From positions 1 to 51,514 of the forward strand of contig CAYHGI010000002.1 of NCBI GenBank assembly GCA_964356285.1: 51,514 bases of DNA. Direction: 5' to 3'. The position numbers were made by a program, and so were the translations under genes. The DNA comes from an uncultured Candidatus Saccharibacteria bacterium. Its GTDB lineage: Bacteria > Patescibacteriota > Minisyncoccia > Phycocordibacterales > UBA9973. Positions 9,176-46,592 of this stretch are shown here, piece after piece. Below the pieces are notes generated by a model, which saw only the letters and a program-made list of their open reading frames with translations, did not search any database and had not been told where the DNA came from. Each line of letters opens with the position of its first letter. The first letter of the stretch is position 1.

Positions 9176-11017
9176 ATGAAATTACAATTACAATCGGTAG
9201 TTAAAACTACCACAAATAATTTTGATACTGAAAGCGAAAATCAGTCCATTTTTGAACGGAATATACAAAGAGGTGTTGAGGCGGGTATAGTATCTTTTAA
9301 CGAAGATAAATCAAGAATAACCTACGCTTGCTCACGAGCTTATACAACGGGTTTTAAGAACCCAGAGGAAAAAGTTAGAGCTTCGTATTTTTGTGAGCTT
9401 GTGCTTGATTATAATTACCCAAAAGAGAAGATGGATTTTGAGGTATTAGTCCCTCGCCGAACCCCAGAGGATAGGGCTGATATTGTTATTTATGAAGATG
9501 AAGAATTAAAAACCCCCTACTTGGTAGTTGAAACAAAAAAAGATGGTATAACCGATGCGGAGTTTAAGCAAGCCATTGAGCAGGCGTTTGGCAACGCTAA
9601 CAGCATACGAGCCAAGCTCGCCTCTGTTGTCGCAGGAACTACTAAAACAGCTTTTGATGTTGCAGGATTTAAACCTAGCGAACGAGCAAAAAATGTTATT
9701 TCAGATATTCCTAAAAAATACGGCAAAACTCCCAAATATAGATTTATAAAGGGCGAAGCAGACAAAGAGTTAAAAACAGTTTCAAGGGACGAACTTATAA
9801 GGGCTTTGGAAAAAGCCCACGATACCGTTTGGCAAGGTGGAAGATTTGACCCGACAGACGCCTTTGACGAAGTTTCAAAACTCTTATTTTGCAAATTGAA
9901 AGACGAAAAAAATACTACCAAAGGAGACCCGTATTCTTTCCAAATAGGCACTCACGAATTACCAGAGGAAGTTTATAAAAGAATAAACGGCATTTACCAG
10001 AAAGCAAAAAAGGAGGACGCCGAAGTTTTTAAGGATGATATAAAATTAGAGCCGAAAGTTGTTTATAATGTAGTTGAGCATTTACAAACACTGGCAATAA
10101 ACAAAATTGATTTAGATACTAAAGGGGTCGCCTTTGAGGTATTTATGACAGATTTTTTCAAAGGCAAAATGGGGCAATTTTTTACGCCTCGTCCTATCAT
10201 ACAATTTTGCGTTAAGATGATGAATCCAGAAAAAGGCGAGCTAGTATTAGACCCAGCTTGCGGGAGCGGAGGATTTTTACTCAACGCTTTGGATTTTGTT
10301 AGAGAATATGCGAGTAAAAATTATGACGAGCAGGAAGCCAGAGACCATTGGCACGGCTTTGCCAAAGATAATTTATATGGCATTGAAATAAATGACAAAA
10401 TCGCCAGAGTTTGCAAAATGAATATGATTATCCACGATGATGGACATACCAATGTTATTAGCACGGACGCATTGGAAAATTTTGAAGATATAGAAAAAAT
10501 ACATCCTAAATTTGAAAAAGACCATTTTGACTTAATCCTTACCAATCCGCCTTTTGGAGCAACCATAAAAAGAACTGAAAAAGATTACTTGGATAAATAC
10601 AAATTGGGAGAGGATAAACCAAATCAGAAAACAGAGATTTTGTTTATTGAGCGTTGTATTGGCTTTGTGAAGCCCAAAACGGGCAGGATAGCGATTGTTT
10701 TACCAGACGGCATACTAACTAACTCCTCTCTGCAAAATGTAAGAGATTTCATAATGGAGCGTTGCCAGATTTTGGGAGTTGTATCTCTGCCCCAATTTGC
10801 TTTTGCTCATTTTGGAGCTGGAGTAAAATCTTCTTTGGTATTTTTGAGGAGAAAGGGAGAAAACGAAAGCATAAAAGATTACCCGATATTTATGTCTATT
10901 GCCGAACATATAGGGTATGACGCAACAGGAAGAGCGGACGCTAAAAATGATTTGGACACGATTTTTGATGAGTATAATAATTTCTTAAAAAATCCTAAAA
11001 ATTATGCAGGCATCTGA
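9176..11017 (+). CDS. N6-adenine DNA methyltransferase with an N-terminal PD-(D/E)xK nuclease-like domain (HsdM-like, or RM subunit of a BcgI-like Type IIB system)
   Basis: 613 aa. SAM motif 'VLDPACGSGGFL' and catalytic 'LTNPPFG'. The N-terminal ~150 aa contain 'RADIVIY...YLVVETKK' (D...ExK). Confidence 0.85.
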   Translation: MKLQLQSVVKTTTNNFDTESENQSIFERNIQRGVEAGIVSFNEDKSRITYACSRAYTTGFKNPEEKVRASYFCELVLDYNYPKEKMDFEVLVPRRTPEDRADIVIYEDEELKTPYLVVETKKDGITDAEFKQAIEQAFGNANSIRAKLASVVAGTTKTAFDVAGFKPSERAKNVISDIPKKYGKTPKYRFIKGEADKELKTVSRDELIRALEKAHDTVWQGGRFDPTDAFDEVSKLLFCKLKDEKNTTKGDPYSFQIGTHELPEEVYKRINGIYQKAKKEDAEVFKDDIKLEPKVVYNVVEHLQTLAINKIDLDTKGVAFEVFMTDFFKGKMGQFFTPRPIIQFCVKMMNPEKGELVLDPACGSGGFLLNALDFVREYASKNYDEQEARDHWHGFAKDNLYGIEINDKIARVCKMNMIIHDDGHTNVISTDALENFEDIEKIHPKFEKDHFDLILTNPPFGATIKRTEKDYLDKYKLGEDKPNQKTEILFIERCIGFVKPKTGRIAIVLPDGILTNSSLQNVRDFIMERCQILGVVSLPQFAFAHFGAGVKSSLVFLRRKGENESIKDYPIFMSIAEHIGYDATGRADAKNDLDTIFDEYNNFLKNPKNYAGI

Positions 11018-13824: not shown

Positions 13825-13896
13825 GCCCCTGTAAGTTAATGGATAGACTAACTTGGTTCTAACGAGAAAATAGAGGTTCAATTCCTCTCGGGGGCA
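13825..13896 (+). tRNA. tRNA-Arg (anticodon TCT)
   Basis: Folded by hand. Acceptor GCCCCTG/CGGGGGC (one T.G pair). D-arm AGTT/GACT with a GG loop. Anticodon stem CTTG/CGAG (A.A at the top), loop GTTCTAA. T-arm AGAGG-TTCAATT-CCTCT. Discriminator A. CCA is not encoded. Confidence 0.7.
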
Positions 13897-13898
13897 CT

Positions 13899-13940
13899 AG
13901 CTAAACGACTAAACTCCGCCAAATAGCGGTTCTAACATTG
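13899..13940 (+). repeat. imperfect direct repeat, copy B (partner at 13704-13736)
   Basis: AGCTAAAC(gactaaactccg)CCAAAT(A)GCGGTTCTA(AC)ATTG. It starts 3 nt after the tRNA 3' end. Confidence 0.6.
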
Positions 13941-13968
13941 TCCAAAGCCCAGAGCCAAAAACAAAAAA

Positions 13969-13997
13969 CTCATACTTTCGTATGGGCTTTTTGTTTT
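13969..13997. terminator. bidirectional intrinsic terminator downstream of the tRNA
   Basis: Stem CTCATAC/GTATGGG with loop TTTC. T-run CTTTTTGTTTT downstream and A-run AAAAACAAAAAA upstream. Confidence 0.6.
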
Positions 13998-14204
13998 ATG
14001 CTTCCAGACGAGCAAGTGAACTGCTTCACTTGCGGGTGGGCGATCGAATGACGGAATACGATTTTTACAAAAGTAAAAATCAATGAGTCGGTGCCCAGAC
14101 AAATTTTTTGCGACGGCAAAAAATTTAGTCGAGGGAGATACCTACCCCCGGCTTTTGATTTTTTAACGAAAAAATGTAACTCGTGACCGATTTCTATCCA
14201 GAAG

Positions 14205-14239
14205 CCTAAAAAACAAACCCGCCAGAGGCTGGCGGGTTT
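14205..14239 (-). terminator. minus-strand intrinsic terminator with no annotated gene upstream of it
   Basis: 11-bp stem AAACCCGCCAG/CTGGCGGGTTT (14215-14239). The A-run at 14205-14217 on the + strand becomes a T-run after the hairpin on the minus strand. Confidence 0.5.
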
Positions 14240-14503
14240 GGGGAGCTTATTGTAACTGTGGAGAATGTGCAGATAGCGCCTAAAGCGCTATCTGTAGAGC
14301 TTGCGGATGAATTCGAAGGGGGTTGGAAAAAATACCCTTGATATTTCTAATAGTTTTAGCGGCTGTGCTGTTTATGGAGATAAAAAATTTTTTCTGACTC
14401 TAGACTTTATAAAAAATTGTTTTATAAAAAGATTTCCACCAATTTTATAGAATTGTGCACTGCTAATGCACAGGTTATTCATACTTTTTGTGCACAGGGG
14501 CTA

Positions 14504-16366: not shown

Positions 16367-16408
16367 TATACTCGGCAGTGGGACTTTAGTAAAAGCTCTA
16401 CTGCCGGG

Positions 16409-16438
16409 TTATACACGAGTTAACAAATGTGCTACAAT
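16409..16438 (+). promoter_or_regulatory. promoter TTATAC-18-TACAAT placed 6 nt before the ATG at 16445
   Basis: -35 at 16409-16414, -10 at 16433-16438. Confidence 0.4.
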
Positions 16439-32310: not shown

Positions 32311-32523
32311 ATGCAAAAAAGATATTGGTTGCGAGGGGGTGTAGTTGGGGCTGTTTTTTATGCGATTTGTTTTTTAATAGCATATGCCTTTGAAACCCAG
32401 AATCCAAATTCTACGGCAAGTGGAATTGGATTACTTGTTGTAATGATATTTTCTTTGCCAGTTATTCCTGTAGGATTCTTTCTTGGCTGGCTTTACGGAA
32501 AAATTAAAAATAAAAATAGATAA
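32311..32523 (+). CDS. small membrane protein (70 aa, two predicted TM helices)
   Basis: Hydrophobic ORF directly after gap. Confidence 0.5.
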   Translation: MQKRYWLRGGVVGAVFYAICFLIAYAFETQNPNSTASGIGLLVVMIFSLPVIPVGFFLGWLYGKIKNKNR

Positions 32524-32524
32524 T

Positions 32525-32545
32525 GAGCAAGGGTAGTCCTTGCTC
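32525..32545. repeat. 21-nt perfect palindrome GAGCAAGG-GTAGT-CCTTGCTC, intergenic copy
   Basis: Identical to 45302-45322 and to the reverse complement of 41890-41910. It starts 2 nt after the stop at 32523. Confidence 0.9.
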
Positions 32546-32584
32546 AAGTAATAGGAAAACATCTGTAAAATGGTATAATGTGGT

Positions 32585-33133
32585 ATGCAAAATATTGACG
32601 AAATTAGCAAAGAACGAGCCATAAAACTTTTCGGCAGTCAAAAAATTGAAAGTTTTGAAATCGGCACTACCAAGGGTTTGCAACAAATTCACAAATACTT
32701 GTTTGAAGGGCTTTATGATTTCGCTGGACAAATGCGCGTAAAAGATATAAGCAAAAGCGGTTTTCGATTCACTTCTTTTTTATATCTGGTTGAAAGTTTA
32801 GCTAGAATCGGAGAAATGCCGGAAAGTACTTTTGAAGAAATTGTGGCCAAATATGTGGAAATGAATATCGCTCATCCGTTTATGGAAGGCAACGGCAGGG
32901 CTATGCGCATTTGGCTTGATTTGATTTTTAAAAAAAATCTCAAACAATGCGTTGATTGGGCCAAGATCGACAAAGCCAACTATTTGAACGCCATGCAGCG
33001 CAGTCCAGTGAACGACCTCGAGATTCGCGAGCTTTTACGCCTCGCCTTGACTGATAAAATTGATGACCGCGAAGTGTTTATCAAGGGCGTAGAGCGGTCG
33101 TATTATTATGAAGAAGAAGATTTTTATAAGTAG
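32585..33133 (+). CDS. fic: Fic family protein (AMPylase-type Fido domain)
   Basis: Canonical motif '[12 protein letters not shown]' (HxFx[D/E]GNGRxxR). Confidence 0.85.
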
Positions 33134-34436: not shown

Positions 34437-35135
34437 ATGAGCGAAATAATACCGGCAATTTTAGAAAAAAATTTTAATGAAATAAAAAACAAACTCACCG
34501 CTTTGCGTGAGCAAACAAAATGCGTGCATATAGATATCTGCGATGGCGTAGCGGTGCAAAGCCAGTCTTGGCCCTTTGCTTCCGGCGGGTTTGAAGATTT
34601 TGATTTCAGAAAAATTATAAACGAAGAAGAGGGTATGCCTTTTTGGCAGGATTTTGATTTTGAATTCGATCTGATGGTAGCGGATGCGGTGGAAAATTTT
34701 GATTTATATATGAAATTGGGCCCAAAGAGACTTATTTTTCACCCCAAGTTTGACCAAAATACAGAAGAATTCGAACATTTTTTAGAGGGATTAGATTTAT
34801 ATATCAGAGACAATGTGCAAATTGGAGTGGCTTTTTTACCGAGTGATGATCTCGTACTAGTATCAAAAATATCTCATAAAGTGGATTTCTTGCATTGCAT
34901 GGGTTCGGACAGGATTGGATTTCAAGGCGAAACTTTTTCCAATCAAGTTCTAGAAAACATAAAATTGCTCAAAAAAAATCTGCCCGGAATAGTGATATCC
35001 GTGGATATAGGCGTGAATCTGCAAAACGCCCAGAGTATTTTGGATGCCAGCGCGGACAGGATTACCGTAGGTTCCAGTATCTGGAAAAGCGCTGACCCGA
35101 TCGGCGCGCTCCAAACTTTCCAAAGTTTGGTATAA
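34437..35135 (+). CDS. divergent ribulose-phosphate 3-epimerase-like protein
   Basis: 'HIDICDG', 'DLMV', 'VDFLHCMGSDRIGFQGETF', 'ISVDIGVN' and 'ITVGSSIW' are collinear with Rpe motifs. Extra acidic insert. Confidence 0.6.
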   Translation: MSEIIPAILEKNFNEIKNKLTALREQTKCVHIDICDGVAVQSQSWPFASGGFEDFDFRKIINEEEGMPFWQDFDFEFDLMVADAVENFDLYMKLGPKRLIFHPKFDQNTEEFEHFLEGLDLYIRDNVQIGVAFLPSDDLVLVSKISHKVDFLHCMGSDRIGFQGETFSNQVLENIKLLKKNLPGIVISVDIGVNLQNAQSILDASADRITVGSSIWKSADPIGALQTFQSLV

Positions 35136-35157
35136 CCCGGTAGTAGAGCTTTTTTCT

Positions 35158-35186
35158 TTGATAAAAGTCTCACTACCGGGTATAAT
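35158..35186 (+). promoter_or_regulatory. promoter TTGATA-17-TATAAT, 7 nt before the tkt-N ATG
   Basis: -35 at 35158-35163, -10 at 35181-35186, ATG at 35194. Embedded in the inverted repeat 35135-35181. Confidence 0.55.
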
Positions 35187-36079: not shown

Positions 36080-37075
36080 ATGTTAAACCCAAAATTAAAA
36101 CTTAATCCGAAAATTTTCAACAACGATGTTGAGCAAGTGCCTATTCGAAAAGGTTTCGGCGAGGGGTTGGTTAAAGCAGGAGAGGAAAATTCACAGGTTG
36201 TTGCCCTTTGCGCGGACTTAACTGAAAGCACCCAGATGAATTTTTTCAAAGAAAAATTTCCGGAACGTTTTGTAGAGGTCGGGGTGGCGGAGCAAAATTT
36301 AGTTACCATCGCTTCCGGTATGGCGGCGATGGGCAAGATTCCTTTTTGTTCTTCGTACGCCATGTTCTCTCCAGGAAGAAACTGGGAACAGATAAGAACG
36401 ACTATCGCTTATAACGATCGGCCGGTAAAAATAGTCGGCTCGCATGCAGGTATTTCCGTCGGTCCAGATGGTGGAACACATCAGGCGCTGGAAGACATAG
36501 CCCTAATGCGGGTGATGCCAAACATGGATGTAATTTCTCCATGTGATGCCACAGAAGCCAGAAAAGCGACTTTGGCGCTGGCAAAAACAGGCAAGCCGGC
36601 ATATCTGCGTTTGGCCCGTGAAAAAACTCCCATTATTACTACCGAAGAAACTCCTTTTGCGCTCGGTAAAGCGGAAATTTACTGGATGCCGGATGTTGGG
36701 ATGGCGCAAGTGGGAATAATTGTTACAGGGGATCTGATGCATCGCGCCTTGCTGGCGGCGAAAGAGCTGGAGGCGGAAGGTATAAAAACAAAAGTTATGA
36801 ATCTGGCCACTATAAAACCGCTTGACGTAAATACTATTGTCGCTCTTGCCAAAGAAACTAAAAGGATTGTGACAGTTGAAGAGCACCAAATTATCGGGGG
36901 AATGGGTTCGGCTGCGGCAGAAGTTCTCGTTCAAAATTTTCCCGTGCCGATGGAATTTGTCGGAGTTCAGGATAAATTCGGTCAGTCCGGTACGCCGGAC
37001 GAGCTGGTGGAACATTATGGTATGGGCAAAAATGCTATCAAAGAAGCGGTAAAAAAAGTTTTAGATAGAAAATAG
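36080..37075 (+). CDS. transketolase, C-terminal (Pyr + C-domain) subunit
   Basis: 'FVEVGVAEQNLV' and 'GPDGGTHQALEDIALMR'. Start set to the ATG at 36080. Confidence 0.85.
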   Translation: MLNPKLKLNPKIFNNDVEQVPIRKGFGEGLVKAGEENSQVVALCADLTESTQMNFFKEKFPERFVEVGVAEQNLVTIASGMAAMGKIPFCSSYAMFSPGRNWEQIRTTIAYNDRPVKIVGSHAGISVGPDGGTHQALEDIALMRVMPNMDVISPCDATEARKATLALAKTGKPAYLRLAREKTPIITTEETPFALGKAEIYWMPDVGMAQVGIIVTGDLMHRALLAAKELEAEGIKTKVMNLATIKPLDVNTIVALAKETKRIVTVEEHQIIGGMGSAAAEVLVQNFPVPMEFVGVQDKFGQSGTPDELVEHYGMGKNAIKEAVKKVLDRK

Positions 37076-38338: not shown

Positions 38339-39340
38339 TTATATTTTCCTTGCTTTATAATCTTCTGGCGCATTTTTAAGATATTCTTCAAGTTTTTCAC
38401 GTGTAAGGAGCCCTTTTTGCGCTCCAATTTCTTGAACTACGGACATGGCATTAATCGGTCCCCAAGCGAATGCCTCAAGGGGAGAAAGTCCTAGAGCAAG
38501 CGCGCAAGTGATGGTCGAAGAAAAAGCGTCTCCGGCGCCCGTGCGGTCGAGCGGCGGAGCTATGTCCGGATACATAGATATATGCCACAATTGTCCATCG
38601 GAAAATAGATAGGATCCCTTTGGTCCATTGCTGATGGTCACTATTTTAGGACCTAGGGCTTGTATTCCTTTAGCTAACGTCAAAATATCTTTACTTTTAA
38701 TATTTAAAATTATTTCGGCTTCTTCCACATTGCAGAAAAATATCTCGGCGCGGGCATAAATTTCTTTTAATTTTTCTGCGCCCAGTTTAATTTGAAAAGT
38801 CCCCGGTTGAAAAGCGAGCTTTGTTTCCGGATTATTTTTTAAGTGCTCTGCTATCTCCGAATGGTAAGAAAGAGAATTATTCGCCAATGAACTTAAATAT
38901 ATCCAAGGCACTTTTCCAAATTTTGGAAGTTTGTAGCTAAACTCAGTGTGTTTGATTAAAATCGTGCGGTCCTCATCGTACCAGAGGACGTAATGATAAT
39001 TTGTCGGTTTGTTTTTTTCTGTGGTCACATAATCAGTGAGCACTCTGTCTTTTTTCAGGCTTTGCAGACAGTCTTTGCCATGTTTGTCGTCTCCAATATT
39101 AGTGACAAGAGCGGAACGCAATCCGAGTTTAGCGGAGCAGACAGCCGCATTCGGACTGTTTCCCACGGCCGGCACCACGGTGACTGATTCATAAGGAACT
39201 TTATCTCCAAAACGCAGACAAAGTTCGCAAGCGTCAGAATCTATTTTACAATGTATGTGCGCGTCTTTTAATCTTATAAACGCGTCAATGACAATATCCC
39301 CAATGGCCAGAAAATCTATTTTTTTCTCTTGCTCACTCAT
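38339..39340 (-). CDS. PfkB family carbohydrate kinase
   Basis: 'DRTGAGDAFSS' motif. 333 aa. Confidence 0.8.
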   Translation of the reverse strand: MSEQEKKIDFLAIGDIVIDAFIRLKDAHIHCKIDSDACELCLRFGDKVPYESVTVVPAVGNSPNAAVCSAKLGLRSALVTNIGDDKHGKDCLQSLKKDRVLTDYVTTEKNKPTNYHYVLWYDEDRTILIKHTEFSYKLPKFGKVPWIYLSSLANNSLSYHSEIAEHLKNNPETKLAFQPGTFQIKLGAEKLKEIYARAEIFFCNVEEAEIILNIKSKDILTLAKGIQALGPKIVTISNGPKGSYLFSDGQLWHISMYPDIAPPLDRTGAGDAFSSTITCALALGLSPLEAFAWGPINAMSVVQEIGAQKGLLTREKLEEYLKNAPEDYKARKI

Positions 39341-40861: not shown

Positions 40862-41677
40862 ATGTTAAAAATCGGAATTGTCGGTCTGCCAAATGTCGGT
40901 AAATCAACGCTTTTTAACGCGCTAACCAAACAGAGCGTGCCGGCGGAAAATTATCCTTTTTGCACCATTGATCCATCGGTGGGCATTGTGCCCGTGCCGG
41001 ATCCGCGCCTCGCCAAGCTCTCCGAAATCAGTAAGTCTAAAAAAACCATACCGGCTATAGTTGAGTTTGTAGATATTGCGGGATTGGTCAAAGGAGCGAG
41101 TACAGGGGCCGGACTGGGAAATAAATTCTTGTCTCATATTCGCGAAGTGGACGCTATTCTTGAAGTGGTGCGTATTTTTGAAGACAAACAGATGATTCAT
41201 GTGCATGACAAAATAGATCCCCTTTTTGATATTGAAGTTATAAACATGGAACTTGCACTTGGGAATATAAAAAAGCCGACTTTGTATGTTTTAAATACTT
41301 CCGAGGCTGCCGAAAATGTTAAAAAAGATTTTATTTCTAAACTGCCTGGACCACATATTGCAGTTGATCCCATTTTTGGGACCGGCTTGGATAATCTGAT
41401 TAAGGCTAGCTATGATTTGCTGAATTTAATCACTTTTTTTACTACCGGTGAAGATGAGTCAAGAGCGTGGACGACGCGTCGGGACTCCACGGCACCAGTT
41501 GCAGGACGCGCTATCCATAACGATTTCAAAGAAAAATTTATTCGCGCGGAAGTGATTGCTTGGGACAAGCTTCTGGAAGCCGGTTCCTACGGCAGAGCCA
41601 GAGAAAGGGGCTGGGTGCGAACGGAAGGCAAGGAATATATTGTGAAAGATGGAGATGTTGTAGAATTTTTAATATGA
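40862..41677 (+). CDS. ychF: YchF-type GTPase/ATPase, compact form
   Basis: 'GIVGLPNVGKSTLFNALT', 'FCTIDP' and a C-terminal TGS-like 'GKEYIVKDGDVVEF'. 271 aa; my recollection is ~360 aa for canonical YchF. Confidence 0.85.
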   Translation: MLKIGIVGLPNVGKSTLFNALTKQSVPAENYPFCTIDPSVGIVPVPDPRLAKLSEISKSKKTIPAIVEFVDIAGLVKGASTGAGLGNKFLSHIREVDAILEVVRIFEDKQMIHVHDKIDPLFDIEVINMELALGNIKKPTLYVLNTSEAAENVKKDFISKLPGPHIAVDPIFGTGLDNLIKASYDLLNLITFFTTGEDESRAWTTRRDSTAPVAGRAIHNDFKEKFIRAEVIAWDKLLEAGSYGRARERGWVRTEGKEYIVKDGDVVEFLI

Positions 41678-42570
41678 TTAAAATTTTTTTTACGAAAGAT
41701 TGGGTGGATTATGAGCTTCTGGATACAGGCGAAGGGGAGAAGCTCGAGCGGTTCGGGCCATACACTTTTGTTCGGCCATATGAAGATGCTGTATGGAAAA
41801 AAATGTTGCCGGAAAGCGAGTGGGAAAAAGCCGACGGCAAATTTTGGAGTTCTAAGGTGGGTTCAAAAGCAGGCTGGAAAATGAAACATGAGCAAGGACT
41901 ACCCTTGCTCAAAAAATGGGAGATGCAGTATAAAGGCATCAAGTTTTTTGCTTCTCCGACCCCTTTTCGCCACCTTTCATTTTTCCCTGAGCAAGCGAGC
42001 CACTGGGACTTTATCGAGACCCAAATCAAGAAAGCTTATCGAAAGGACCGTCCTTTGCAATTCTTAAATCTTTTTGGCTATACCGGAGTGGCTAGCCTTT
42101 TTGCTTTGCGCGCTGGCGCCGAAGTTACGCATCTGGATGCTTCCAAACAAACTCTTGCTTGGGCAAAAGAAAATCAAAAACTAAATGCTGAGCTAGCTGA
42201 AGCACCGATGCGCGTGATTGAAGATGATGCTCTAAAATTTTTGGAACGGGAAGCCAAGAGAGGAAATAAATATGACGCTATTATTATGGACCCGCCGAAA
42301 TTCGGCCGGGGACCAAGGGGGGAGGTTTGGAAGATTGAAGAAATGCTGCCGAAACTTCTTGCTTGCGTGCGGAAAGTTTTAAGCGATAAACCACTTTTTG
42401 TTATTTTGACTTCATATAGCATAGACTCTTCCTCGCTTTCTTTGGGCTATGCGCTTGAAGAGATGATGAAAGACTTTAGTGGTAATACTGAAGCTGGAGA
42501 GTTGTGCGCATTAGAAAAGTCCAATAGTCGTGTTATTCCACTTGCCAACACGGCCGTTTGGAGTATATAA
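41674..42570 (+). CDS. class I SAM-dependent (rRNA large-subunit type) methyltransferase
   Basis: 'LNLFGYTGVASLFA' and 'YDAIIMDPPKFGRG'. The ATG overlaps the ychF stop (ATGA). Confidence 0.75.
   Translation: MIKIFFTKDWVDYELLDTGEGEKLERFGPYTFVRPYEDAVWKKMLPESEWEKADGKFWSSKVGSKAGWKMKHEQGLPLLKKWEMQYKGIKFFASPTPFRHLSFFPEQASHWDFIETQIKKAYRKDRPLQFLNLFGYTGVASLFALRAGAEVTHLDASKQTLAWAKENQKLNAELAEAPMRVIEDDALKFLEREAKRGNKYDAIIMDPPKFGRGPRGEVWKIEEMLPKLLACVRKVLSDKPLFVILTSYSIDSSSLSLGYALEEMMKDFSGNTEAGELCALEKSNSRVIPLANTAVWSI
41890..41910. repeat. 21-nt perfect palindrome (reverse-complement orientation) in-frame inside the methyltransferase CDS
   Basis: GAGCAAGGACTACCCTTGCTC encodes 'EQGLPLL'. Confidence 0.9.
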
Positions 42571-43580: not shown

Positions 43581-46500
43581 ATGCGAGAATACGACCATAA
43601 AAAAATTGAGAAAAAATGGCAGAATGAATGGAAGAAAAAAGGAACTTATCACGCAAAAAATTTCTCCAAAAAATCGAAATTTTACAGTTTGATCGAGTTT
43701 CCGTATCCTTCCGGTGACGGATTGCATGTCGGGCATATTCGCAGCAACACAGCGATGGATATAATTTCACGAAAACGAAGAATGGAAGGTTTTAATGTCC
43801 TCTATCCGATCGGCTGGGATGCTTTTGGTCTGCCGACGGAAAATTACGCCATCAAGACGGGTATCCATCCGATAAAAGTGACCAAAGATAATACCGACAT
43901 TTTTAGACGCCAGCTCAAAGCGATGGGTTTTTCTTTTGATTGGTCGCGGGAGATAAACACAACTGATCCGAAGTATTATAAGTGGACCCAGTGGATATTT
44001 TTGCAGTTTTTGAAAAAAGGCTTAGCTTATAAGGCTAAAATGACAATAAATTGGTGTCCAAAAGACAAGATCGGTCTGGCTAATGAAGAAGTAATTGATG
44101 GGAAATGCGAAAGATGCGGTACGGCAGTGGAAAAAAGAGAGAAAGAGCAATGGATGTTAGCCATCACTAAATATGCCGACAGGCTGTACAAAGATCTCGA
44201 CGATGTAGACTATCTGCCGCAGATAAAACTCGGGCAAAGGAATTGGATAGGAAAGAGCGAAGGAGCTCTAATAAATTTTCAATTATCAATTTCTAATTTT
44301 CAAAAAAATAAAATAGTTTCCGCTAGGAAAGTCCTAGCGGAGTATGTGGAGGTATTTACTACCCGTCCGGATACGATTTTCGGGGTAACTTTTCTTGCTG
44401 TTGCTCCTCTCGTTGCTAAAAAATTAACGGGCAAAGATTTCGGCATAAAAGTAGATATTGATCGAGAAAATAAAGAAAAAGTGGGTATAGATACCGGACT
44501 AAAAGCAAAAAATCCGGCAAACGGGGAGATGGTGCCTGTATTTGTGGTTAATTATGTATCTGCAGAATATGGCACCGGCGCAATTATGGGTGTGCCAGCG
44601 CATGACGAGCGGGATTTTGAGTTTGCTAAGAAATATGGGCTAGAAATAAAAAATGTTATTGAACCGGTATTTACTGATGAACCAAAAGCCGGAATACCTT
44701 TTATAGACAGGAATGCGATACATGCAATTTTGAAGCATTGGTCGGAAGAAAAGTATTTAGTCCTGCTTTGGAAAAAAGTTGACTGGGTTACATTTGTAAC
44801 AGGTGGGGTAGAAAGAGGAGAAAATCCATTACAGGCTGCCATAAGAGAAATTAAGGAAGAAACAGGATATTTAAACCTGAAGTTAAAAAAAGAATTGCCT
44901 GCATCTCATAGTAAATTTTATCATATTCCCAAAAAAGAGAATCGATTTGCTCATTTTTCCAATTTTTATTTCGAATTAGAAAACGGGCAACAAGAAGAAT
45001 TATCAGAAGATGAAAAAAGCAATCATGAATTAAAATGGGTTTCTCCGGATGAACTTGAAAAAATTATGAAAATTAAAGGGGCACTTCGGGACTGGAAAGT
45101 TTTAAGGGGTAAAGAAGAGGTTTATATAGGTGAAGGACTTTTAACTAATTCAAGCCAATTCGACGGTATGGATTCGGAAAAAGCTAAAAAAGAAATCACA
45201 AAGTTTGTCGGCGGAAAGGAAAAAGTAACTTTCAAGCTCCGTGACTGGATATTTTCCAGGCAGAGATATTGGGGCGAGCCGATACCAGTCGTGTATTGTC
45301 TGAGCAAGGGTAGTCCTTGCTCAAATACATGGGTGCCGGTGCCGGAAAAAGATTTGCCGGTGGAATTGCCCAAAGTTAAAAATTACCAGCCGACGGAAAG
45401 TGGGGAATCGCCACTGGCTAATATCTCAAAGTGGGTCAATGTTAAATGTCCGAAATGCAAAGGGCCAGCTAAAAGGGAAACTGATACCATGCCGAATTGG
45501 GCTGGCTCTAGTTGGTATTATCTGCGTTACACTGATCCTAAAAATAGTAAGGAGTTTGCCAGCAAGAAAAATTTGAAGTACTGGCTGACCTCACCCCGTC
45601 CCTCTCCCAAGGAGAGGGCTCCTTCCCTTTTGGGGAAGGCGGAGGAAGAGATGGGTGGGGTCGACTGGTACAACGGAGGCAATGAGCACACCACCTTGCA
45701 TCTTTTATATTCTCGTTTCTGGCATAAATTTTTATATGATTTGAAATTAGTACCGACTTCAGAGCCATATATGAAGCGCACTTCGCATGGGATGATTTTG
45801 GGCGAAGGAGGAGTCAAAATGTCAAAATCGCTTGGCAATGTTATTAATCCAGACGATATTGTGAAAACATACGGCGCAGACACACTTCGTATTTATGAAA
45901 TGTTTATGGGGCCCTTTGACCAATCTGTCGCTTGGTCCACAGAAAGTATTATTGGGGCGAGGAGGTTTATTGAACGTGTCTGGAATCTACAATATAAAAT
46001 CTCACCCCAGCCCTCTCCTTTCAAGAGAGAGGGAAGCCCTTTCTCCTTTCAGGGGAAGGCGGGGGATGAGGTTGAGAGGTTGATGCACCAAACGATAAAA
46101 AAAGCAACAGAGGACATTGAGGCGATGAAATTCAACACAGCCATTTCGACACTTATGATTTTTGTGAATGAAGTTGGTAAGCTTGATTCTATCTCACGAG
46201 ATGTTTATAAAAAATTCCTCAAACTTCTCTCGCCCTTTGCGCCACATATCGCGGAAGAATTATGGCAAAATTTAACCTCACCCCGACCCTCTCCAAAAGA
46301 GAGGGGGAAATTCAAGGTCTTCCCCTTTGGGGGAGGAGCGGAGGAAGTGAGAAGCATTCATCTTTCCAATTGGCCGAAGTGGGACGAAAGCCTGATTCAA
46401 GATGAAGAAATAAAAATTGCGGTGCAGGTAAACGGCAAAGTAAGGACGGAAATAATTATCCAGACAGACGAGCAGGAAGAAATTGTCAAACAAAAAGCTT

Positions 46501-46592
46501 TAAGAAACAAGACTATTATTAAATATATCGGGAATAAAATTCCCCTAAAAGCGATTTACGTGAAAAATAGACTTATCAACATAGTTATTTAG
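43581..46592 (+). CDS. leuS: leucine--tRNA ligase carrying multiple in-frame insertions, including a Nudix domain
   Basis: 'HVGH', 'TTRPDT', 'GTGAIMGVPAHDERDFEFA', 'RDWIFSRQRYWGEPIP' and 'KMSKS'. Start set to the ATG at 43581. 1003 aa. Confidence 0.9.
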   Translation: MREYDHKKIEKKWQNEWKKKGTYHAKNFSKKSKFYSLIEFPYPSGDGLHVGHIRSNTAMDIISRKRRMEGFNVLYPIGWDAFGLPTENYAIKTGIHPIKVTKDNTDIFRRQLKAMGFSFDWSREINTTDPKYYKWTQWIFLQFLKKGLAYKAKMTINWCPKDKIGLANEEVIDGKCERCGTAVEKREKEQWMLAITKYADRLYKDLDDVDYLPQIKLGQRNWIGKSEGALINFQLSISNFQKNKIVSARKVLAEYVEVFTTRPDTIFGVTFLAVAPLVAKKLTGKDFGIKVDIDRENKEKVGIDTGLKAKNPANGEMVPVFVVNYVSAEYGTGAIMGVPAHDERDFEFAKKYGLEIKNVIEPVFTDEPKAGIPFIDRNAIHAILKHWSEEKYLVLLWKKVDWVTFVTGGVERGENPLQAAIREIKEETGYLNLKLKKELPASHSKFYHIPKKENRFAHFSNFYFELENGQQEELSEDEKSNHELKWVSPDELEKIMKIKGALRDWKVLRGKEEVYIGEGLLTNSSQFDGMDSEKAKKEITKFVGGKEKVTFKLRDWIFSRQRYWGEPIPVVYCLSKGSPCSNTWVPVPEKDLPVELPKVKNYQPTESGESPLANISKWVNVKCPKCKGPAKRETDTMPNWAGSSWYYLRYTDPKNSKEFASKKNLKYWLTSPRPSPKERAPSLLGKAEEEMGGVDWYNGGNEHTTLHLLYSRFWHKFLYDLKLVPTSEPYMKRTSHGMILGEGGVKMSKSLGNVINPDDIVKTYGADTLRIYEMFMGPFDQSVAWSTESIIGARRFIERVWNLQYKISPQPSPFKREGSPFSFQGKAGDEVERLMHQTIKKATEDIEAMKFNTAISTLMIFVNEVGKLDSISRDVYKKFLKLLSPFAPHIAEELWQNLTSPRPSPKERGKFKVFPFGGGAEEVRSIHLSNWPKWDESLIQDEEIKIAVQVNGKVRTEIIIQTDEQEEIVKQKALRNKTIIKYIGNKIPLKAIYVKNRLINIVI
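44320..44340. repeat. 21-nt 8-5-8 palindrome CCGCTAGG-AAAGT-CCTAGCGG in-frame in leuS
   Basis: Same architecture and similar core (AGG-N5-CCT) as the GAGCAAGG palindrome. It lies in an extra segment before 'TTRPDT'. Confidence 0.7.
45302..45322. repeat. 21-nt perfect palindrome GAGCAAGG-GTAGT-CCTTGCTC in-frame in leuS
   Basis: Encodes part of 'CLSKGSPCSN'. Deleting the 21 nt leaves the frame intact (..C L N T W..). Confidence 0.9.
45588..45659 (+). repeat. 72-nt GC-rich palindromic element, copy 1, in-frame in leuS
   Basis: TCACCCCGTCCCTCTCC-CAA-GGAGAGGG...CCTTCCC-TTTT-GGGGAAGG...GGAGGAAG. Encodes TSPRPSPKERAPSLLGKAEEEMGG. Confidence 0.8.
46002..46073 (+). repeat. 72-nt GC-rich palindromic element, copy 2, in-frame in leuS
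   Basis: TCACCCCAGCCCTCTCC...GAGAGGG...GGGGAAGGCGGGGGATGAGG. Encodes SPQPSPFKREGSPFSFQGKAGDEV. Confidence 0.8.
46275..46346 (+). repeat. 72-nt GC-rich palindromic element, copy 3, in-frame in leuS
   Basis: ACCTCACCCCGACCCTCTCC-AAAA-GAGAGGG...CTTCCCC-TTTG-GGGGAGG..GCGGAGGAA. Encodes TSPRPSPKERGKFKVFPFGGGAEE. Confidence 0.8.

Follow-up and report, generated by a model that had tools for sequence, protein, structure and literature searches.

Repetitive extragenic palindromes (REPs) and their REP-associated tyrosine transposases (RAYTs) have been studied almost entirely in Proteobacteria. Two inverted REPs in a larger hairpin form a REPIN, which, according to Bertels and Rainey, is reportedly the replicating unit. 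In the GTAG- and CGTC-tagged REP superfamilies, a tetranucleotide is conserved at one end of the stem-loop, and REPs inside genes are known in other bacteria, including the Rickettsia palindromic elements (RPE) RPE-4 and RPE-6 (Di Nocera et al. 2013, PMC3733652). Here we describe a short palindrome that occurs three times, as an identical 23-nt unit, in a stretch of 51,514 nucleotides from contig CAYHGI010000002.1 of an uncultured Candidatus Saccharibacteria bacterium (hereafter the window). We consider it probable, at about 85%, that the three palindromes belong to the REP type and serve as the cognate hairpin substrate for a RAYT (Y1/HUH) of this Paceibacteria lineage (Patescibacteria, or candidate phyla radiation, CPR). 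We base this assignment on relatives of the lineage, because there the palindrome brackets a RAYT gene on both sides, is dispersed through the genome and pairs with the RAYT lineage.

The palindrome and its copies in the window

The first-pass annotation of the window reported a perfect 21-nt palindrome, GAGCAAGGGTAGTCCTTGCTC, at three loci. A search allowing up to 3 mismatches returned exactly three matches, at 32525-32545 (+), 41890-41910 (-) and 45302-45322 (+), all of them perfect and exactly where that annotation had placed them, and no copy with 1-3 mismatches was found in the 51.5-kb window. The 21-mer is absent from all 100 dinucleotide shuffles of the window, with 0 matches expected by chance. 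The contexts given for the copies (intergenic, S-adenosylmethionine (SAM) methyltransferase and the CxxC region of leuS) were likewise borne out. The stem, however, had been put at 8 bp and is 9 bp long, as the unit common to the three copies extends one base further on either side. This 23-nt unit, TGAGCAAGG-GTAGT-CCTTGCTCA, is a perfect palindrome with a 9-bp stem and a 5-nt loop; folded as single-stranded DNA it reaches -9.2 kcal/mol (z = -6.1), and it falls within the size of about 20-40 nt of the palindromic unit of REP/RAYT systems. The three copies are:

32524..32546, + strand: copy 1, TGAGCAAGG-GTAGT-CCTTGCTCA, intergenic
41889..41911, - strand: copy 2, inside an RlmI-like SAM methyltransferase gene, 41671-42570 (+); the loop reads ACTAC on the + strand
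45301..45323, + strand: copy 3, inside leuS, 43581-46592 (+); loop GTAGT

Copy 1 begins 1 nt past the TAA stop of an open reading frame (ORF) for a small membrane protein (32311-32523) and ends 38 nt before a Fic-family gene (32585-33133). Copy 2 is in-frame and codes for H-EQGLPLL-K in a variable surface loop between GWK and KWEM of the methyltransferase, whose gene family matches are PF10672/PF03602. Copy 3, also in-frame, codes for L-SKGSPCS within the first pair of cysteines in the zinc-knuckle region of LeuS ('VVYC-LSKGSPCS-NTWVPVP'). Six contigs of the same Hainich groundwater population, each assembled independently, match the window at 99.7-100% identity and hold the same intragenic copies, which are therefore not an assembly artefact. 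In the window, each copy stands alone as a singlet, kilobases from the next, at a density of ~1 per 17 kb (3 in 51.5 kb). Dispersed copies are present in relatives as well, with 5 in 11 kb of one locus (L123; L numbers denote loci) and up to at least 7 per assembly.

Single 8-mer arms (TGAGCAAG/CTTGCTCA) also stand isolated at four places in the window (41988-41995, 36130-36137, 9327-9334 and 39328-39335; about 1.2 expected), one of them 78 nt downstream of copy 2. These could be chance occurrences or decayed half-sites.

A transposase gene bracketed by the repeat in relatives

The exact arms, with whatever 5-nt loop between them, were searched for in one genome of each GTDB species. At least 119 stretches matched, with about 140 copies among them, and almost all come from Patescibacteria of the Paceibacteria type. 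Among the matches listed, the host groups are Nomura-, Kaiser-, Adler- and Zambryskibacteria, 'Paceibacterota' and Minisyncoccia, and about 10 matches lie in non-CPR phyla, each with a unique loop (~9 expected by chance). Loops are genome-specific: among the matches listed, 87 of 105 copy pairs from the same assembly (83%) have identical loops, as against 866 of 8940 pairs between assemblies (10%), and each genome has its own 'master' loop variant, with GGAGT, GGAAC, CGAAA and TTCGA found in other genomes. Flanks had been suggested as a place to look for target-site preferences; in 62 oriented copies, conservation stops at the edges of the 23 nt, and flanking direct repeats are also absent, both results being consistent with Y1 transposition. 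Classical REPs are predominantly extragenic, whereas here two of the three window copies and 58 of the 138 listed copies of relatives lie inside open frames of at least 120 codons; many copies of relatives are situated at ORF 3' ends or slightly beyond. Nor are the copies arranged as REPINs, tandem or inverted pairs being seen only in the vicinity of some RAYT loci (L098).

When the translated flanks of the copies were clustered, one large cluster of 27 sites emerged, representing a gene of about 220-245 amino acids. In nine independent genomes, the palindrome is found at both ends of this gene, 0-50 nt from the start and stop codons (L010/L123, L011, L106, L096, L084, L055, L002, L104 and L056), and in three it is found on one side (L086, L049 and L046, where the contig end cuts the other side). 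A homologue of the gene is present in 17 of the 119 listed palindrome-selected 8-kb loci, whereas a single-copy gene would be expected in ~1%. The family numbers at least 723 proteins from Nomurabacteria and Paceibacterota, every one of which carries the annotation PF01797 or 'transposase'.

The gene product matches the Pfam family Y1_Tnp (PF01797, IS200-like transposase) with 35.4 bits (gathering threshold, GA, 23), and its sole NCBIfam match is REP_Tyr_transpos (NF047646, E 8.6e-10). The motifs YHxYxRG, CxMPNHFH (HUH) and SYxHLNP (catalytic Tyr) are invariant in an alignment of the products. A sequence-only search of the PDB with a single sequence gave no match. An AlphaFold2 model of a database homologue has a pLDDT of 69 and a pTM of 0.71, and Foldseek against the PDB gave a single significant match, 4er8_A (E 1.7e-4, probability 1.00), followed by the TnpA proteins of IS608 and ISDra2. 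4er8_A is the E. coli RAYT in complex with a REP hairpin. The product combines an HUH motif and a catalytic tyrosine with what the model shows as a RAYT fold. Since it adjoins rpoD in L011, L096, L200 and L202, the gene's position indicates that this RAYT is syntenic, single-copy and vertically inherited, which is usual for RAYTs and unlike insertion sequences. Three RAYT genes of relatives themselves hold an in-frame copy of their own REP (L055 at 853, L013 at 7793, and L049 with one mismatch); the resulting peptides read RREQGETLLKK or RHEQGSTLLE.

Different RAYTs have different palindromes. Other palindromes stand on either side of the more distant paralogues, which share 27-36% identity, namely CAGCGGT-N3-ACCGCTG in L166/167/170, L035 and L165, and TTGTGCATAC-N3-GTATGCACAA in L033. 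In a reverse test, three RAYT homologues were fetched by protein id alone, and all three (3/3) have a REP-like hairpin with changed arms about 50 nt upstream of the start codon. The arms are covaried in L204 (TGAGCGAGG/CCTCGCTCA, accompanied by a copy with a G·T intermediate) and in L202 (CAGCAAGG/CCTTGCTG), and imperfect in L200 (TCAGCAAGG/CCTTGCTTA), where a second RAYT is bracketed by TTGCTAGG-tcttg-CCTAGCAA. REP arms covary with the RAYT lineage in these sequences, distinct lineages having distinct palindromes. Taken as a whole, the features found in relatives are those by which a REP/RAYT system, or REPtron, is defined. The first-pass annotation had left the choice between a tiny hairpin element and a recognition site; the palindrome is probably both, as the cognate repeat of a RAYT-type tyrosine transposase.

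By analogy with E. coli TnpA-REP and the TnpA of IS200/IS605, the hairpin would form on single-stranded DNA, for example at replication forks, and a RAYT dimer would bind it, cut and rejoin it through the HUH/Tyr site and lay down copies elsewhere without target-site duplication. As the genomes are almost entirely coding, many copies would land in genes, where they would survive only in stop-free frames and in protein loops that tolerate extra residues.

Age and setting of the coding copies

The initial proposal of a recent spread does not agree with the distribution of the coding copies among relatives. The leuS copy occupies the same position in L093 and L021, whose flanks share 79.7% and 74.7% identity with those of the window, while the repeat itself is identical at 23/23 and 22/23 positions, the single change being a synonymous loop base. 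Similarly, the methyltransferase site is common to seven relatives with flanks 68-76% identical to those of the window and 18/18 arm bases unchanged. Given this orthologous placement between flanks that are just 68-80% identical, both copies are old. The coding-strand loop of the methyltransferase copy is ACTAC in the window, L123 and L177, and GGAGT in L029, L085, L126, L127 and L129, a difference that turns EQGLPLL into EQGESLL between identical arms. Because the arms stay constant while the peptide switches, it is the DNA and not the protein that is conserved.

The 21 nt had been taken for exactly seven codons, the removal of which would leave VVYCLNTWVPVP. This does not hold, as the unit is 23 nt long and orthologues without the element differ by 18 nt in leuS and by 12 nt in the methyltransferase. 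LeuS orthologues that lack it read C-x-x-C-G-[W/I/M]-VPV, compared to C-L-SKGSPCS-NT-W-VPV in the window (net +18 nt), where the second Cys of the CxxC zinc knuckle is encoded by the repeat's own TGC. The corresponding methyltransferase loop commonly has 7 residues (MEKKITE, FDKKITD) and in its repeat-bearing form 11-12 (net +12 nt). When 120 methyltransferase orthologues and 120 LeuS fragments were aligned, no simple 7-codon indel was seen, which rules out a clean insert of seven codons; the element overwrote some local codons instead of adding a clean heptapeptide. The GTAGT family can be read in six combinations of orientation and frame, of which only three contain no stop, and the two coding copies of the window use two of these; frame 1 of the repeat always contains TGA, and GTAGT with its T in codon position 3 yields TAG. 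When loop states were mapped on a neighbour-joining tree of the methyltransferase, the repeat-bearing sequences were scattered, the proteins being 75-85% identical and the tree too poorly resolved for counts of gains and losses.

The same protein loops hold unrelated palindromes in other genomes. At the methyltransferase loop we found three other perfect palindromes, read in another frame: TGTCAAAG(G)-N3-5-(C)CTTTGACA, translated MSKGTFD, TGTCAAGG-N5-CCTTGACA and GTGTGCAAAGT-tcg-ACTTTGCACAC. A second loop of this protein, about 140 nt downstream, holds diverse hairpin elements of 21 to about 100 nt in relatives (loci L120-L188), for example TCTGCGGAAGC-aag-GCTTCCGCAGA. There, the stems stay perfect through paired substitutions even as the peptide changes, as in the series TCTGCGGAAGC/GCTTCCGCAGA to TCTGCGGAAGT/ACTTCCGCAGA to TCTGTGAAGGA/TCCTTCACAGA; at this second hotspot (about 42020-42070, loop IKKAYRKDRPLQF) the window has only a 6-bp remnant, AAAGGA-ccg-TCCTTT. 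The C-x-x-C loop of LeuS likewise holds unrelated insertions in other CPR genomes (L156, L125/L133, L127 and L143; proteins P0123, P0126 and P0218), and in L156 the insertion is a perfect 21-nt palindrome, TGTAGACGT-cgg-ACGTCTACA, that also adds 18 nt and reuses the Cys codon TGT in its stem. This pattern fits many independent insertions filtered by protein tolerance: if survival is limited to stop-free frames and tolerant loops, unrelated palindromic elements would be expected to pile up at the same places. One REP may also have taken the place of another, or template switching may have corrected one arm against the other.

The leuS gene of the window has further features. It holds three in-frame, GC-rich composite palindromes of ~70-78 nt (45586-45663, 45998-46073 and 46276-46345), with an outer stem CCTCACCCC...GGGGTGGGG around two inner hairpins such as CCCTCTCC-caa-GGAGAGGG. 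Translated as 'TSPRPSPKER...' and folding as RNA at -32 to -46 kcal/mol, they resemble a family of RPEs or miniature inverted-repeat transposable elements (MITEs) distinct from the 23-nt repeat, and similar cores are found in loci of relatives. Residues about 394-507 of LeuS form a NUDIX hydrolase domain (PF00293, 59 bits; motif GGVERGENPLQAAIREIKEETGY), directly after a truncated editing (CP1) domain that matches profile positions 1-144 of 185, and contigs of the same population show this architecture too. A Nudix domain within the editing region of an aminoacyl-tRNA synthetase is unusual. Many of the LeuS matches around this region (P0121-P0240) are gene calls of 130-260 amino acids on long contigs, a sign that the gene is often split or miscalled when metagenomes are annotated; palindromic inserts that introduce stops or frameshifts may be the cause.

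Two other regions of the window drew our attention. After a tRNA-Arg(TCT) at 13825-13897, ~550 nt (13900-14460) are apparently non-coding and contain at least 6 separate perfect hairpins with stems of 9-12 bp; the region has no Rfam match at gathering thresholds and may be an unannotated structured RNA or a terminator stack. In addition, the 24-nt sequence AAAAGCTCTACTGCCGGGTTATAC is found at 16391-16414 and, as a 96% reverse complement, at 35130-35153, both sites being intergenic, with the related ACTACCGGGTATAAT at 35172. The pair may represent a shared promoter or operator motif.

Alternative explanations and known systems

Several observations weigh against the assignment to REP/RAYT. The gene product scores 38.7 bits against NF047646, short of the equivalog cut-off of 80 bits, which points to a divergent RAYT subfamily. 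The AlphaFold2 model is of moderate confidence (pLDDT 69), and a profile search of the PDB gave weak matches (2xm3, E 0.044; 4er8, E 0.37). The repeat has no GTAG/CGTC tag; GTAG is found inside the loop alone, and not in every genome. Net gains of 18 and 12 nt are unlike a clean 23-nt insertion, and simple copy-and-paste does not explain why old orthologous copies are perfect, with loops that track the genome. Finally, no RAYT gene was found in the 51.5-kb window by tblastn or by a profile search of all six frames, nor was one found in the six contigs of the same population. The transposase of the window's repeats, if still present, would therefore lie elsewhere in the genome; the copies would be served by it in trans, or else be relics.

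An extension of the REP/RAYT reading holds that the intragenic copies are actively maintained, either by a resident RAYT that re-templates REP sites in place to the current master sequence or because the hairpin has a host function that selection favours, with the leuS copy exapted to supply the second Cys of the zinc knuckle. It would fit the 18 arm bases kept over 20-30% divergence of the flanks, the loops that track the genome and not the site, and the differing REP families in the same protein loop; we nevertheless regard active maintenance as a tentative and on the whole unlikely proposition.

Local template switching, by which quasi-palindromes are corrected, could make and perfect palindromes at permissive sites with no transposase, the association with RAYT being incidental. 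Different perfect palindromes in the same protein loops across genomes, arms that change by paired substitutions, strictly Watson-Crick stems and the absorption of prior flank bases by some palindromes (such as TGT in the leuS of L156) would all fit such a process. It does not account for identical 23-mers at unrelated sites or the same arms across many genera, nor for the two-sided flanking of RAYT genes, and as a full explanation we find it improbable. It may well, however, help to maintain palindromes that a RAYT has spread.

An element selected at the RNA level, whether a terminator, an RNase site or a stabilising hairpin, would be in line with the stability of the hairpin and with the many copies of relatives at or just past ORF 3' ends, and REPs elsewhere affect mRNA stability (PMC3733652). 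Sense transcripts nonetheless carry the loop in both orientations (ACTAC in the methyltransferase, GTAGT in leuS). Copy 1 has no T tract on the coding strand, and the only terminator-like match in a terminator scan falls on the gene-less strand. The hairpin has no match in Rfam, which found only the tRNA-Arg, and the arms are invariant in sequence within the family, beyond what pairing alone would demand. We therefore consider this origin distinctly improbable, although the hairpin may have a secondary effect on RNA.

A DNA-uptake signal of the kind known as DUS (DNA uptake sequence) in Neisseria and USS (uptake signal sequence) in Haemophilus, built up by biased uptake and recombination in competent Patescibacteria with lineage 'dialects', would agree with conserved orthologous sites that carry genome-specific variants and with the presence of copies in coding regions. 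The MSKGTFD palindrome family could also be cited in its favour, as it gives the methyltransferase loop the same length as the empty loop, which suggests substitution and not insertion. The density in the window, ~1 per 17 kb, is far from the ~1 per kb of DUS/USS, and the motif is always a complete hairpin. The idea was dropped as very improbable in view of single-arm counts that are barely enriched (4 vs 1.2 expected), the absence of degenerate copies with 1-3 mismatches, and the strong and specific association with a flanked Y1 transposase.

A binding site for a dimeric host protein unrelated to transposition (an operator, a parS-like site or a nucleoid site) might be suspected from the perfect dyad, the conservation of the arms across genera and the clustering of copies in some loci (L055, L098). 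The clusters, however, are the RAYT loci themselves, the arms covary with the RAYT lineage and no regulator gene is consistently near, making this reading extremely improbable. An ancestral heptapeptide kept by protein-level selection, for which the retention of SKGSPCS in three LeuS orthologues might speak, is refuted, as the same DNA yields EQGLPLL in the methyltransferase and SKGSPCS in LeuS, one copy is intergenic, LP changes to ES in the methyltransferase between identical arms, and synonymous positions are frozen while flanks have diverged by 20-30%.

Among known systems, the ~20-30-nt multicopy hairpin dRS3/NTS of Neisseria flanks the gene of SsnA, the protein that recognises it as single-stranded DNA (PMC11893778). 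The architecture is alike, but SsnA is a GIY-YIG single-stranded DNA nuclease and the gene associated with the CPR repeat is Y1/HUH; no GIY-YIG gene was seen next to the CPR repeats, and the analogy was set aside. Members of IS200/IS605 (IS608, ISDra2) share the catalytic fold, as the secondary Foldseek and PDB matches indicate, together with the recognition of subterminal hairpins in single-stranded DNA and the lack of target-site duplication. They are multi-copy, with distinct left and right ends and often tnpB, whereas the CPR gene appears single-copy and syntenic with the same palindrome on both flanks, and the palindrome alone is dispersed. The intragenic REPs and the elements RPE-1, RPE-4 and RPE-6 of Rickettsia (PMC3733652) are similar in that in-frame palindromes lie in protein genes, housekeeping genes included, and are tolerated in surface loops; different elements are found at the same site of an orthologue (recB in Xanthomonas), as at the CPR loops. 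RPE-1, however, measures 100-150 bp and has no known transposase, compared to a 23-nt unit with a cognate RAYT in relatives.

The closest match is the REP/RAYT system of Proteobacteria (E. coli TnpA-REP, 4ER8; Pseudomonas REPINs). Both systems have a short, dispersed hairpin repeat and a Y1/HUH gene bracketed by its own repeat, cognate pairs with more than one pair per genome (here L200), a genome-specific master sequence, a syntenic and apparently vertically inherited transposase, and no target duplication. The CPR element differs in having no GTAG/CGTC foot tag and a perfect palindrome with a 9-bp stem and a 5-nt loop, in occurring as singlets and not as REPIN doublets, with a large share of copies in-frame inside genes, and in its transposase of ~225 amino acids (165 in E. 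coli), which falls below the NCBIfam equivalog cut-off, and in its host, which has an ultra-small CPR genome.

Among the papers searched, none describes RAYT or REPIN in Patescibacteria, Parcubacteria or CPR. Based on our findings, we suggest that the range of REP/RAYT extends to the ultra-reduced genomes of Patescibacteria, where extreme streamlining would still leave a transposase-repeat pair in place and the scarcity of intergenic space would bring repeats into essential genes. For annotators, this may account for odd insertions of 4-12 residues in CPR proteins (EQGLPLL, EQGESLL, SKGSPCS, SKDYPCS) and probably for some contig breaks. Conserved orthologous copies with genome-specific loops also provide a tractable data set on the homogenisation of REP populations. 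Overall, REP/RAYT is a system already described, from which the present instance differs by its lack of a tag, its perfect singlet palindrome, its intragenic share, its longer and divergent transposase and its CPR host.

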